Origin: Enterobacter bugandensis
Lineage (GTDB): Bacteria > Pseudomonadota > Gammaproteobacteria > Enterobacterales > Enterobacteriaceae
Length of the DNA stretch: 32,000 bases
Direction of reading: 5' to 3'
Assembly: GCA_964290475.1 (NCBI GenBank)
Contig: CAXYPO010000002.1
Location: 1,561,714 to 1,593,713, forward strand
Made by a program: the position numbers and the translations under genes. The notes beneath the pieces are model-generated. The model saw only the letters and a list, made by a program, of their open reading frames with translations. It made no database searches and was not told the origin of the DNA. Shown here piece by piece: positions 26,290 through 29,849 of the stretch (the stretch's first letter is position 1; each line of letters starts with the position of its first letter).

Positions 26290-27990
26290 ATGAAACAAAA
26301 TGGATATTGCTTCATGCTGAAAAAGAAAAACGGCTTTATCGTCGGGCTTATTATTGCCATTACACTTTGCCATAATGCCGCCGCCAGTATTTCACACTCA
26401 ACTACGAACCAGTTAGATCAGGATCGGGCACGTGAAACTGCGCTTACCCCTCAGCAGCAAGAGTATAAATCCTCGCAGGAAAACTCCGCCAGAGGAAATA
26501 TCGAATTCCCCAAAGAGGATAACTGTAAATATATTAAAGAGGTTAATATTGAGTCAGAGGATAATAAGCTAACAAATAAACTACTGGGTAAAATAATTAG
26601 TCAGGCAAAATATCAATGCATTGGTATTGAAGGGATCCGTCTGCTCGCCAGTACTTTACAGAATGAGCTCATTATTAAAGGTTATATAACCTCTCTGATT
26701 GACGTTCCATCCCAGTCACTGGAGCATGGGGTACTACATTTAACCTTAACCTACGGCAAAATCGGTCAAATTGCCTATGCGGACGATGAGCCCCTAAATA
26801 AAACATTGCTGTGGAACTCTCTCCCGTTCTCGGAGGATGACATTCTGCGGCTGCCCGATCTCGAACAAGGGATGGCTAATCTCCAGCGCCTCCCGGGCTC
26901 TTCAGCCCATATGCAGCTGCTGCCCGGGCTGAAACACGCCGAGAGCAATATACGCCTTACCCGTAAGCTCGATAAAATGTGGCAAATAGGCGCCTGGCTG
27001 GATGATGCCGGAAGCCGCTCTACCGGCCGCTATCAGGGCGGTGGTGCCCTCTATCTGTATGACCTGACCTCGCTTAACGATATTATCTATGTTGCTGCCG
27101 GGAGCGATGTTGAGTTCAATCAGCACGAAAAGGGGAATAAAAACAGCAGCGTTTATTACTCCATCCCCTTTGGCTACTGGAATATGAGCCTGTACGCGTC
27201 GCAAAGCGAGTATCTTCAGCAGTTTCGTGGCCAGTGGTCTACCAACGATTACGAAAGTAAAAATCGCTATTACAGCGCGACGCTTTCACGGCTGCTGTCC
27301 CATACCCGCAGCCAAAAAACATCGCTGGAGACCAGGGTATTTAAAAGTCTCTCCCACTACTACTTTGGTGGCGAAGAGCTACAGGTGATGCGTAAGCAAA
27401 ACCCCGGCTGGGAGGTCGTCCTTCGCCATCAACGCTATTTCGACAATGCCGTTGTTGATGCCTCGGTGGGGGTGCAAAACAAGCTCCGCTGGTTAGGCTC
27501 TACAGCAACACCGGAGGAAAAAGCCGGCCTGTATGATAACGAGGCCCGGATTGTTCATGCCGATCTGCAGGCATATATCAAATTTGCAGCAACCAGCGAT
27601 AAATTTACCTGGGCGCCGAAAATAACTTTACAGTTAAGTCCCGATGAACTTTCTACCGATAATAAATTTAATATGGGTAGCCGCTGGTCGGTGCGCGGTT
27701 TTGATGGCGAAAGCACCTTATCGGGTAATCAGGGTTGGTACTGGCGTAACGATTTTATCTGGGATTTACCCCTACCGGGCCAGCAATTTTATACCGGTCT
27801 GGATATAGGCAGACTGCAAGGAAGCGAGCAGTATGGCCAGGGAAAAGTTCTTTCCGGGGCTGTTGCAGGATTACGCGGTGAATTCATGTCCACCGAGTAT
27901 GACCTTTTTATTGGAACGCCTTTATATAAACCGAAAAGTTTTCACTCCCAAGCACTTAATATGGGCTTTTCAATGCAATGGAGGTATTAA
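26290..27990 (+). CDS. Two-partner secretion outer-membrane transporter TpsB (ShlB/FhaC/HecB family, POTRA plus 16-strand barrel)
   Basis: 566 aa, or 558 aa from the alternative ATG at 26314, which gives the classical signal peptide MLKKKNGFIVGLIIAITLCHNAAA. A POTRA-like region is present (IKEVNIES...LQNELIIKGYITSLIDVPSQSLEHGVLHLTLTYGKIG). The Omp85/TpsB loop-6 motif VRGF is at aa 468-471 (nt 27691..27702). The barrel-type C-terminus ends ..GFSMQWRY. Confidence 0.88.
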   Translation: MKQNGYCFMLKKKNGFIVGLIIAITLCHNAAASISHSTTNQLDQDRARETALTPQQQEYKSSQENSARGNIEFPKEDNCKYIKEVNIESEDNKLTNKLLGKIISQAKYQCIGIEGIRLLASTLQNELIIKGYITSLIDVPSQSLEHGVLHLTLTYGKIGQIAYADDEPLNKTLLWNSLPFSEDDILRLPDLEQGMANLQRLPGSSAHMQLLPGLKHAESNIRLTRKLDKMWQIGAWLDDAGSRSTGRYQGGGALYLYDLTSLNDIIYVAAGSDVEFNQHEKGNKNSSVYYSIPFGYWNMSLYASQSEYLQQFRGQWSTNDYESKNRYYSATLSRLLSHTRSQKTSLETRVFKSLSHYYFGGEELQVMRKQNPGWEVVLRHQRYFDNAVVDASVGVQNKLRWLGSTATPEEKAGLYDNEARIVHADLQAYIKFAATSDKFTWAPKITLQLSPDELSTDNKFNMGSRWSVRGFDGESTLSGNQGWYWRNDFIWDLPLPGQQFYTGLDIGRLQGSEQYGQGKVLSGAVAGLRGEFMSTEYDLFIGTPLYKPKSFHSQALNMGFSMQWRY

Positions 27991-28058
27991 CCTAATACGA
28001 CAATAGATTTTTGCAGTTCTGTATTGTTTGACGTTTATTATTTAAAGGAATAAATACA

Positions 28059-29849
28059 ATGTTTAAGTTTAAATTATCTTATGTAGCACTTGCAGCGGCG
28101 CTGACCTCCTCTTTCGTCTATGCCGATCCTTCTTCTTATACCCATAAATCCGGGACCAAAGTTATTGATATTGAAGCGCCGAATGCTGCTGGCGTTTCAC
28201 ATAACCTGTACCGCGATTTTAACGTTGACAGTAAAGGCGTGGTCCTTAACAACAGCGGTAGCGACTATGCCCACAGCACCCTGGGCAATATTGCCAAAAA
28301 CAATAACTTAAGCAACGGCAGCGCATCCGTTATTCTGAATGAAGTGGTTTCAAAAAACCCAAGTTCACTTAACGGCTTCATTGAAGTAGGCGGTAAAAAA
28401 GCCGATGTCATTATCGCTAACCCGAACGGCATCTCCTGCTCTGGTTGTAGCTTTATTAACACCCAAAAAGCCATCCTGACCACCGGCAAAGTTAACATGA
28501 CCAGTACTGGCGCAGTCGGAAGCTATACCGTTACCAATGGCACCATTACCATTGGCAAAAATGGCATGGATGCAGCCAACTCCTATGCGGTTCTGCTAGG
28601 TGATGCCATTAACCTTAATGGCATGGTTACCGCGCAAAATGCGCACCTGAGCGCAGGCAACTTCACGATGGATAATGCCACCGGCGTTGTCACCTCTGCA
28701 GGTAAACAAGCCACTCTGCTACAGAAGCTGAATCCGGCCTACAGCATCGACGTCAGCAGCCTGGGCGGCGTTAAGGCGAATAACATCACCATGGTGGGCA
28801 ACAACCTGGGGTTCGGTGTGCGTAACAAAGGCGCGATCGTCGCTAACTCAAGCCTTGCCCTGACCAGCAACGGCTCACTGATTAACGACGGCTCCATTAA
28901 CGGTAATGGGTTTGTTACCCAAATCGCTACTGCCGGCGAACTGAAAAATAGCGGGACCATTGCCACTAAAAACATTGCAATGCTGACAAGCTATGGTGAT
29001 TTCAATAACACCGGTACCATTGAGAACACTTCGCAGATGGCGGTAAATGCAGCAGGCGATCTGACCAACAAAGGCGTGCTCAAAAGCGCTAAAACGCTGG
29101 CAGTAAACACCAACGGTAACTTATCCACCGGTTCCGGTGCTTATCTGCAGGCGGGTGAACAGCTGCAAATCAGCGCCCTCGGTAATATCGATAACGCTGG
29201 TTACACCGAGGCGAAACAGACCCTTGTTAGCTTTGGCGGCAAAGAAATGACCGTCAGCAATACGTTGTCAGGTACTGACTCGCTGGTAATTCAATCCGTA
29301 AAAGATAACAAAATCTCTAACGGTGTAATTACCAACAAAGGTCTGATTTCAGGCGGCAACGTTAAGCTTCATACCAATGGCAACATCGAGCTGGCTAAAA
29401 ACAGCACCACCAGCGCGACCCAATCCCTGACGACCAAAAGTTATGCGCTGAATAATGAAGGCTCAATGGAAGGCAAAACTGCGACTGTAAATATCGATAA
29501 CTGGTCCACCACCAACAGCGGCCACATTATTGGTAAAACAATCAATGTATTGACCTGGTTTGATATGCTCAATGAAGGGATGATCCAGTCTCTGGGCGAC
29601 CTGAATATCAATACCCAAAATAATGGTAACCTGATTAACCGTAGCAGCATCTACTCCAACGGCACCTTCACGCTCTCTGCCAAAAAGGTGATTAACGGTG
29701 GCTATCGCTGTGGCTTTATGAATCTCAGCACCTGTGGCGTTGGCAACCTTAACGCCAATAAACTGGTTCTGAATTCAACCCATAAATATGCCTCTGAAAT
29801 GGGCGGCACACAGAATTTCAAAGCGACCCAGGTAAACACTGTTAAATAA
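28059..29849 (+). CDS. Short TpsA exoprotein: Sec signal, haemolysin-type TPS secretion domain and ~20-aa beta-helix repeats, with no identifiable effector domain
   Basis: 596 aa with signal peptide MFKFKLSYVALAAALTSSFVYA. TPS-domain motifs are present: GVSHNLYRDFNV, ILNEVVSKNPSSLNG and ANPNGISCSGCSFIN (compare ShlA/HpmA NPNGITCDGCGFIN). The motif IDVSSLGGVKANNITMVGNNLGFGVRNKG is also present. It is followed by repeats such as AGELKNSGTIATKNIAMLTS / YGDFNNTGTIENTSQMAVNA / AGDLTNKGVLKSAKTLAVNT. Confidence 0.88.
   Translation: MFKFKLSYVALAAALTSSFVYADPSSYTHKSGTKVIDIEAPNAAGVSHNLYRDFNVDSKGVVLNNSGSDYAHSTLGNIAKNNNLSNGSASVILNEVVSKNPSSLNGFIEVGGKKADVIIANPNGISCSGCSFINTQKAILTTGKVNMTSTGAVGSYTVTNGTITIGKNGMDAANSYAVLLGDAINLNGMVTAQNAHLSAGNFTMDNATGVVTSAGKQATLLQKLNPAYSIDVSSLGGVKANNITMVGNNLGFGVRNKGAIVANSSLALTSNGSLINDGSINGNGFVTQIATAGELKNSGTIATKNIAMLTSYGDFNNTGTIENTSQMAVNAAGDLTNKGVLKSAKTLAVNTNGNLSTGSGAYLQAGEQLQISALGNIDNAGYTEAKQTLVSFGGKEMTVSNTLSGTDSLVIQSVKDNKISNGVITNKGLISGGNVKLHTNGNIELAKNSTTSATQSLTTKSYALNNEGSMEGKTATVNIDNWSTTNSGHIIGKTINVLTWFDMLNEGMIQSLGDLNINTQNNGNLINRSSIYSNGTFTLSAKKVINGGYRCGFMNLSTCGVGNLNANKLVLNSTHKYASEMGGTQNFKATQVNTVK

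Follow-up and report, generated by a model that had tools for sequence, protein, structure and literature searches.

A 32,000-nucleotide stretch of Enterobacter bugandensis DNA (contig CAXYPO010000002.1, positions 1,561,714 to 1,593,713; here called the window) carries a two-gene cassette, tpsB-tpsA, which encodes a transporter and its exoprotein. The cassette is a complete, self-contained type Vb, or two-partner secretion (TPS), system with an ordinary-looking mechanism. Sequence comparisons indicate that its TpsA is a member of a widespread, uncharacterized family of "mini-TpsA" proteins in the Enterobacterales; this is the smallest TpsA class found in our analysis, and it has a family-specific terminal module. 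The cassette is near-core in the Klebsiella pneumoniae species complex, and its hypervariability at a fixed genomic site is the most informative clue to function. We consider it probable (roughly 0.6) that TpsA serves as a short, surface-exposed or secreted beta-helical fiber for adhesion or for recognition between cells or of surfaces, with its shaft under diversifying pressure.

Architecture of the tpsB-tpsA cassette

The two genes were first called as open reading frames (ORFs) on the + strand at 26290-27990 (tpsB) and 28059-29849 (tpsA). A first-pass annotation described the order as B then A, with a 68-nt spacer and a single terminator after A, and this layout holds. The spacer (27991-28058, + strand) contains a Shine-Dalgarno sequence, AAGGA, at 28045-28049, 9 nt before the tpsA ATG, and no terminator. 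The sole terminator-like hairpin on the + strand follows tpsA at 29858-29888, with a 14-bp stem and then a T-run. It lies between tpsA and the convergent ybeL (ORF 29902-30384), within the gap of 52-53 nt that begins after the last base of tpsA (29849), and it probably serves both genes. Co-transcription of tpsB and tpsA would fit this layout and their conserved pairing in all related loci. No immunity gene lies directly 3' of tpsA, where only the terminator gap precedes ybeL, and the same is true in K. pneumoniae. The GC content of the cassette is 0.48, versus 0.56 in the flanks and 0.34 in the upstream region.

The original start of tpsB at 26290 (566 aa) had to be revised: gene callers and cross-species comparison favor 26314 (558 aa, MLKKKNGF...). 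The in-frame ATG at 26290, which would encode "MKQNGYCFM," is probably not the start. With this correction, tpsB (26314-27990, + strand) encodes a 558-aa Omp85-type transporter made up of a signal peptide, an N-terminal region, POTRA1, POTRA2, and a ShlB-type barrel; across 16 loci its length is 556-559 aa. The POTRA-like sequence and loop-6 VRGF motif noticed at first sight are borne out by Pfam matches to POTRA_2 (E 2.5e-11) and ShlB (1.5e-78, model positions 2-311 of 311), both of which had been predicted, and by RWSVRGFDG in the translation. A POTRA_3 match (2.9e-12) was found in addition. Among solved structures, the closest relative is CdiB (6wil, E 1.3e-53), and CdiB and FhaC structures match over residues 98-555.

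TpsA has 596 aa, and the mature protein has a mass of 59 kDa. As initially proposed, it begins with a plain Sec signal peptide (aa 1-22, MFKFKLSYVALAAALTSSFVYA then DP; 28059-28124, + strand), which is conserved in the family and disordered in the AlphaFold model, with a predicted local distance difference test (pLDDT) score of <50 for residues 1-22. The TPS secretion domain follows (aa 23-275; 28125-28883, + strand), related to HpmA265 and Fha30 by sequence and fold (TM-target 0.80-0.88). It matches Pfam TPS at aa 28-274 (E 4.7e-41), and the protein matches the NCBIfam family adhes_NPXG (TIGR01901). Sequence matches in the PDB, to HpmA265 (8.5e-33; 34-38% identity) and Fha30 (1.7e-31), cover only aa 28-255. 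TpsA contains ANPNGISCSGCSFIN; in ANPNGISCSGC, residues A120, N121, P122, G124, I125, C127, S128, G129, and C130 are invariant among 38 homologs, N123 is nearly invariant (at least 90%), and position 126 is S or T. The first TPS motif is NNNL instead of NPNL, NPNGI is present, and C127 and C130 form a C-x-x-C pair. A domain of the ShlA/HpmA flavor with such a pair had been claimed, and HpmA265 is indeed the top PDB sequence match. The TPS subtype does not discriminate a hemolysin type, however, because Fha30 scores almost equally.

Distal to the TPS domain lies a variable beta-helix shaft (aa 276-545; 28884-29693, + strand) of ~13 coils of ~20 aa, each with an N-x-G. The Asn/Gly/Thr-rich repeats of ~20 aa reported at the outset are evident from an autocorrelation peak at lag 20, from an N-x-G ladder at residues 256/276/297/317/337..., and from the composition of the protein (N 13.6%, G 11.7%, S 10.3%, T 9.9%). 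The chain is hydrophilic, with a grand average of hydropathy (GRAVY) of -0.17. Of the profile matches expected for TpsA, the TPS domain was found and aa 520-596 were empty as foreseen; Fil_haemagg repeats appeared only below threshold (aa 313-381), and no Pfam family matched beyond aa 381. Nor did Pfam detect PT-VENN or any toxin family at E values up to 0.01. The earlier description of a protein with "no recognizable cargo" and a short tail is thus correct for known domains and incomplete for the tail: the last ~50 aa are a conserved, family-defining module with a Cys pair, referred to here as the cap (aa 546-596; 29694-29846, + strand).

A family of small TpsA proteins with its own C-terminal module

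A search of a library of 5.8 billion proteins returned 586 relatives of the window TpsA. All 120 relatives among the matches listed are ~534-600 aa long and align over 96-100% of the protein; they come from Klebsiella, Leclercia, Enterobacter soli, and other Enterobacteriaceae and carry generic annotations only. An identical TpsA occurs on three public contigs with the same neighbors, and an allele from K. pneumoniae, which lies at the same site, accounts for 3,272 indexed blocks of an assembly collection. We compared 17 syntenic loci, comprising 16 species representatives plus K. pneumoniae contigs. TpsA has 588-600 aa in every one (17/17), so the much longer homologs at the same locus that would mark the window protein as shortened were not found among them. 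Cedecea, Apirhabdus, Erwinia, and Pantoea carry shorter relatives (457-555 aa) and a single longer form of 738 aa; one Pantoea genome has nothing but the two genes between metJ and priA. Still more distant relatives are giant TpsAs of 1,000-6,700 aa, which match the TPS domain and generic repeats only. In a library of 1.84 billion proteins, end-to-end profile matches that include the C-terminal part were confined to proteins of 446-596 aa.

We modeled TpsA with AlphaFold2 using 38 homologs. The model is one continuous all-beta helix with a pLDDT of 91.4 (95-98 in the shaft) and a predicted template modeling (pTM) score of 0.86. Its best matches among solved folds are Fha30 (1rwr; E 1.6e-14, TM-target 0.80) and HpmA265 (TM-target 0.81-0.88), both of which correspond to the N-terminal third of TpsA. 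Conservation differs by zone: mean pairwise identity is 72% in the TPS domain, 45% in the shaft, and 62% in the last ~50 aa. Within the shaft, only the N-x-G ladder and inward-facing positions are conserved, and comparison with proteins from Pantoea, Erwinia, and Cedecea reveals the gain or loss of entire 20-aa coils between genera.

The cap is shared across this range. Residues C551, C559, G562, A566, G583, and N593 show no variation anywhere between Klebsiella and Pantoea, and the Cys pair is invariant across the entire mini-TpsA family, down to 34% identity. The window TpsA can be aligned over its full length with family members from 10 other sources, all of which follow one plan: ~450-740 aa, a TPS domain, a shaft of 20-aa coils, and a C-x(5-7)-C...G(T)..A...G...N cap. 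In a local hmmsearch of the representative matches, a profile of the cap hit only the C termini of TpsAs of 446-596 aa, with E values of 1e-15 to 1e-26; it found no cap in any of the ~135 giant TpsAs checked. With the cap as query, a word-indexed search of the 5.8 billion proteins returned only four fragments, too few to be informative. In Erwinia endophytica (L060, 6001-8217), the 738-aa mini-TpsA has extra tandem shaft coils and, after the cap, a long acidic Thr/Asp/Ser-rich tail with TTDS/NTTDS repeats. The cap is therefore not always the extreme C terminus, because other Erwinia and Pantoea members also carry acidic tails, shorter ones. The first reading had offered either a minimal beta-helix or a new small TpsA family, and the conserved lengths, the family-specific cap, and the predicted single beta-helix support it.

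Highly divergent alleles at a conserved site

In the 16 species representatives, tpsBA always lies between gltL (or rihA) and ybeL-leuS; the carriers at this fixed site are Klebsiella, Leclercia, Enterobacter soli, and Silvania, with homologs of 588-600 aa numbering in the hundreds. The proteins flanking the cassette in the window are closest to those of Leclercia and Enterobacter. A megablast search with 5.5 kb found no counterpart in Escherichia coli, and in E. coli strain 104 (L086, 11017-12479), rihA and ybeL are directly adjacent, with the site empty. Because these two genes adjoin each other there, tpsBA can be described as an islet at the rihA/ybeL junction. The lower GC of the cassette likewise speaks for an insertion at this site.

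The cassette and its flanks have diverged to very different degrees, a contrast that the first-pass annotation could not see. In comparisons of the window with other genera, identity is 90-97% for GltL, 81-94% for YbeL, and 90-92% for RihA, against only 61-75% for TpsB and 47-63% for TpsA. Among sister species, flanking genes are 97-100% identical, and TpsA is 53-76% identical with mostly saturated synonymous divergence (dS). For example, K. oxytoca and K. michiganensis have a gltL dS of 0.26 and 100% amino acid identity in its product, whereas tpsB and tpsA are 67% and 59% identical with saturated dS; most other species pairs compared show the same contrast. Alleles bearing the same species label can be just as different, with TpsA identities of 54% in Leclercia adecarboxylata, 60% in K. 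oxytoca, 66% in K. grimontii, and 69-92% in K. aerogenes. Divergence in TpsB is spread out (60-63% identity in the POTRA domains and 69% in the barrel). This spread suggests that cognate tpsB-tpsA pairs are old and have been replaced as units.

Variation is more modest in K. pneumoniae. TpsA forms two allele groups there, set apart by 19 residue differences, of which 12 fall in aa 262-294. Singletons drawn from "90% clusters," of which there are dozens, are mostly 96-99.8% identical. Cluster counts therefore overstate diversity, K. pneumoniae is only moderately variable, and we rejected hypervariability within this species.

In the sole pair with unsaturated dS, the ratio of nonsynonymous to synonymous substitution rates (omega) was low in the cap (0.10) and the TPS domain (0.12) and higher in the shaft (0.24); each allele is therefore under purifying selection. 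Overall, the pattern resembles that of O-antigen, capsule, and fimbrial-adhesin loci, where balancing or frequency-dependent selection preserves old alleles. As at such surface-antigen loci, the old tpsBA alleles may have been moved by recombination in the conserved flanks.

Some loci depart from the simple arrangement. In Klebsiella sp. MISC125 and K. spallanzanii (L008, 7794-12283; L018, 7779-11995), additional genes lie between tpsA and ybeL, encoding an Hsp70 (HscC-like), a DnaJ-like protein, and a DUF1266 protein. The rihA/gltL-ybeL junction is a variable spot in other respects as well, as rihA is missing there in Klebsiella loci. In Pantoea sp. Eser, a stink-bug symbiont, the tpsA frame is broken, leaving a 76-aa ORF (L034, 5968-6198), and the TpsB match is partial; in Apirhabdus (L023), the TpsB match (5083-5901) covers the C-terminal half only. 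Both copies are probable pseudogenes in host-restricted lineages. When plasmid records were searched with tblastn, full-length matches were limited to three Klebsiella records (5.37 Mb, 770 kb, and 316 kb), and all other matches were large proteins annotated as "hemagglutinin repeat-containing." The largest record, CP125156.1 (5.37 Mb, K. pneumoniae, "plasmid unnamed2"), looks like a mislabeled chromosome because it carries the chromosomal gltK...ybeL...lptE-holA context.

Upstream region and possible regulation

The AT-rich region upstream of tpsB (25971-26313, + strand; GC 0.34) presumably holds a promoter and a ~195-nt leader, judging from its composition and from an alignment of the 16 syntenic loci. 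Over these ~340 nt, conserved islands stand within otherwise unalignable sequence. One of them is a dyad-like motif, CAGTTCACATATAAATGAG (26055-26073, + strand), conserved in the Klebsiella, Leclercia, Enterobacter, and Silvania loci; in two loci (L006 and L014) it reads CAATTCACATAGAATTG, a perfect CAATTC-N5-GAATTG palindrome. This motif is a candidate regulator site. About 45 nt downstream lies the conserved element GCTAGCATA (26105-26115, + strand); in the alignment this stretch, GCTAGCATAGC, includes a -10-like TAGCAT, and a conserved T(A/G)G 17 nt upstream is a possible -35. The two islands could represent an activator site plus a promoter, which would leave the ~195-nt leader. A scan of the upstream region for the sigma-70 consensus found no strong promoter, nothing better than in shuffled sequence, and did not pick up the 26105-26115 site.

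Within the leader, a hairpin with GGA in its loop (UGAGA-AGGAC-UCUCA; 26245-26259, + strand) is present in leaders of the Leclercia/Enterobacter/Silvania type. It is seen in five leaders (the window, L007, L010, L014, and L021), and the GGA is mutated in L020. The K. pneumoniae leader (L004) has AAUGGAUG ~25 nt upstream in place of the hairpin. A second GGA element, AAAUGGAUAU, lies near the tpsB start, and the paired elements hint, speculatively, at CsrA-type control. The translation-initiation region of tpsB, caATGAAAC(A)AAATGGATATTGCTTCATG (26288-26316, + strand), is itself conspicuous in the alignment: 15/16 loci show almost no variation across the 25-29 nt that precede the start, AATGAAAC(A)AAATGGATATTGCTTCATG, unlike in the signal-peptide codons just downstream. 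A 1-nt indel in several loci shows that this region is constrained at the DNA or RNA level rather than as coding sequence. Rfam returned no credible family for the leader. Inside tpsB (26657-26703), a subthreshold Rfam match to the Yersinia small RNA Ysr201 (24.8 bits versus a gathering threshold of 62; E 0.029) is most likely due to chance. No Fur box was found, the best match being 12/19.

Comparison with known two-partner systems

The cassette shares its B-then-A order, ShlB-family transporter, TPS fold, and CxxC pair with HpmA/HpmB of Proteus mirabilis and ShlA/ShlB of Serratia marcescens. HpmA and ShlA, however, are ~1,600 aa long with a distal pore-forming part, whereas the 596-aa window TpsA has no membrane-active region and has its own Cys-pair cap. 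FHA/FhaC of Bordetella is similar in fold (the best match), in its beta-helical shaft of ~19-20-aa repeats, and as a presumed adhesive fiber. The FHA precursor exceeds 3,000 aa. Unlike the window TpsA, it includes a functional domain in its distal part and a prodomain that is processed, and FHA/FhaC is not known to behave as a polymorphic cassette at a fixed site. The smallest structurally characterized TpsA, HxuA of Haemophilus influenzae (secreted with HxuB), is likewise a single beta-helix; its C-terminal region carries a disulfide that has been proposed to lock it in the transporter. It is ~60% larger, has long hemopexin-binding loops, and is linked to hxuC.

HMW1/HMW1B and CdrA/CdrB also have a conserved Cys pair near the TpsA C terminus, known in CdrA as the C-terminal "cysteine hook." They differ in size (~1,500-2,100 aa), and anchoring is only a candidate property in the window TpsA; HMW1 in addition has another TPS subtype (fold match E 2e-3) and needs the HMW1C glycosyltransferase. 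The resemblance to CdiB/CdiA lies in the similarity of TpsB and in strong within-species polymorphism. CdiA, unlike the window TpsA, has PT-VENN, a C-terminal toxin with an immunity gene, and a swappable C-terminal tip; here, it is the shaft and the tpsBA pair as a whole that are polymorphic instead. With Ag43, a type Va protein, there is a functional analogy only: it has a polymorphic beta-helical passenger without an enzymatic domain, uses another secretion subtype, shows no sequence relationship, and appears only among the nonsignificant fold matches of the TpsA model. The lateral surface of Ag43 mediates cell-cell association.

Proposed mechanism and alternative explanations

Considering the observed architecture, family relationships, synteny, divergence pattern, and predicted fold together, we infer secretion, disulfide formation, surface retention, and an adhesive or recognition role as follows. 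TpsB and TpsA would both be exported by Sec. The TPS domain (aa 23-275) would dock onto the two POTRA domains of TpsB, and the chain would be threaded through the TpsB barrel and fold outside the cell (vectorial folding). The product would be a single right-handed beta-helix of ~28 coils with an estimated length of ~13 nm, without a toxin, enzyme, or known binding domain, consisting of the TPS domain, the variable shaft, and the conserved C-terminal module. Two disulfides made by DsbA are presumed, one of them in the Cys pair of the cap. The module may serve as a solenoid cap. Alternatively, as the examples of HMW1, HxuA, and CdrA suggest, it may hold the C terminus at the transporter and thereby keep the rod on the cell. 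The allele pairs would be maintained at the fixed site, or exchanged through the conserved flanks, with each under purifying selection. The functional part would be the variable lateral surface of the shaft, subject to diversifying, frequency-dependent pressure from phage, host, or self/non-self specificity.

Several points weigh against this role. The label "adhesin" derives from the habits of the family and the pattern of polymorphism. A rod of ~13 nm is short relative to the Klebsiella capsule, which would bury it. With synonymous sites saturated in every pair but one, positive selection on the shaft is conjectural. The divergence of TpsB extends over the POTRA domains and barrel instead of being limited to loops, and it therefore reflects the age of the alleles and not necessarily selection at the surface. 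Species labels were taken from the source databases, where errors are possible, and this applies to the within-species comparisons above. The cap profile matched no PDB chain by sequence at E values up to 10 and no Pfam family. Moreover, AlphaFold packs residues 546-596 onto the helix as its last coils with a pLDDT of 87-97, a confident placement that favors a simple end cap over a periplasmic plug. Finally, the link to a K. pneumoniae locus tag discussed in the next section is only probable.

The packing of the cap bears directly on a variant in which the protein stays at the surface: the C-terminal Cys-loop module would be a disulfide-locked stopper in the periplasm or the TpsB pore, and the rod would form a permanent spike. 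The invariance of the Cys pair speaks for such a stopper, as do the constraint on the cap, which is as conserved as the TPS domain by omega and clearly more conserved than the shaft by identity, and the precedent of a C-terminal disulfide anchor (PMC5422565). The model and the lack of similarity between the cap and any PDB chain argue the other way. So does position, since the Cys loop lies 38-46 residues from the C-terminal end and not within the last 20 as in HMW1, where the Cys pair is reportedly so placed. We therefore see the stopper as possible though doubtful. A much less likely explanation is a mini-cytolysin, or a helper that activates or complements a hemolysin of the ShlA/HpmA type. 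The TPS domain is most similar to HpmA265, shares its CxxC, and is paired with a full ShlB-family transporter; yet Fha30 scores nearly as well, the ~1,000-aa distal region of ShlA and HpmA has no counterpart, and the entire chain is a hydrophilic beta-helix. The islet also holds no second toxin gene, with ybeL following 52-53 nt past tpsA, and the cassette is near-core in K. pneumoniae, a species that to our knowledge is not known as hemolytic.

We rejected a truncated remnant because lengths, cap, and omega are all conserved. The related idea that the cassette is decaying or silent xenogeneic DNA, an old acquired TPS islet that is small through past truncation, could draw on the lower GC, with an upstream value (0.34) typical of H-NS-silenced DNA, and on the failure to find a strong sigma-70 consensus promoter. 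Set against this are the narrow length ranges of TpsA and TpsB in all syntenic loci, omega values of 0.10-0.24, a C-terminal module conserved to the stop codon across genera and present in none of the ~135 giant TpsAs, and conserved leader and promoter motifs, so that we give it very little credence. Equally improbable is a toxin-free relative of contact-dependent inhibition (CDI) systems or a ligand-capturing TpsA like HxuA. TpsB is nearest to CdiB among solved structures, the polymorphism recalls CDI loci, and HxuA is the next-smallest known TpsA and a weak fold match. Nevertheless, TpsA lacks PT-VENN and toxin domains, there is no room for an immunity gene, neither the islet nor the Pantoea metJ/priA locus has a TonB-dependent receptor or other partner, no Fur box was found, and the HxuA fold match is poor (root mean square deviation of 14 Å, 12% identity). 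Each of the cytolysin, CDI-like, HxuA-like, and pseudogene explanations thus fails at least one tested feature, and a short adhesive or recognition fiber remains our preferred reading.

Relation to the literature and significance

No characterized ortholog was found, which leaves the first-pass annotation standing on this point. The sole characterized Klebsiella TPS system, KpFhaB/FhaC of K. pneumoniae sequence type 15 (ST15), is also a chromosomal pair, with a POTRA_2, POTRA_3, and ShlB transporter, and has been linked experimentally to adhesion and biofilm (PMC13272123). KpFhaB is, however, a CdiA-like protein of 2,635 aa with an extended signal peptide and a VENN-motif domain, found in ST15 and its relatives only (PMC13272123); identity with the window system is ruled out by the different gene (fhaB, 7,908 bp) and locus. 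The results on KpFhaB do not bear directly on the 597-aa K. pneumoniae protein. The initial argument that known TpsAs are far larger agrees with a review that gives their sizes as "~100-650 kDa" and calls HxuA (96.3 kDa) "relatively small" (PMC5422565), compared with 59 kDa for the mature window protein. According to the same review, HMW1, and presumably HxuA, is locked in its transporter by an anchor at the C terminus that contains a disulfide. The genome paper of K. pneumoniae 342 counted two TPS systems and discussed only the HecA-like one. In a 2026 PLoS Biology paper, KP1_1632 appears as block 2, one of the four blocks most strongly associated with a proposed K. pneumoniae ecocline; the authors call it "so far ... 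uncharacterized" and suggest adhesion. KP1_1632 is probably the 597-aa K. pneumoniae ortholog of the window TpsA, which would fit its product name, the near-core distribution, and the two allele groups.

The cassette is of a known kind and not categorically new; its family has no characterized member. A cargo-less family of 59 kDa with its own terminal module nevertheless widens the definition of TpsA, a group so far described as proteins of 100-650 kDa with a functional distal domain, and offers the smallest natural substrate for studies of type Vb secretion and vectorial beta-helix folding. One extension of the fiber reading, which we regard as unlikely, is allele-specific recognition: the hypervariable shaft would mediate binding between rods of one allele, or between a rod and a matching partner, and the fixed-site cassette, with its trans-specific polymorphism, would serve as an "identity tag" of kin or strain by which Klebsiella and Leclercia strains are sorted into aggregates. 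If true, this would underlie part of the K. pneumoniae ecocline signal and would place the protein in a TpsA class of new function, the toxin-free equivalent of CDI or Ag43. It would also be the smallest passenger of type Vb found in nature. If KP1_1632 is the ortholog, the cassette would be one of the few loci structuring the K. pneumoniae population. An uncharacterized, surface-antigen-like cassette, with same-species alleles 54-92% identical, is near-core in the complex of a priority pathogen, and it is a candidate for work on adhesion, phage receptors, strain recognition, typing, and vaccine-antigen variability.

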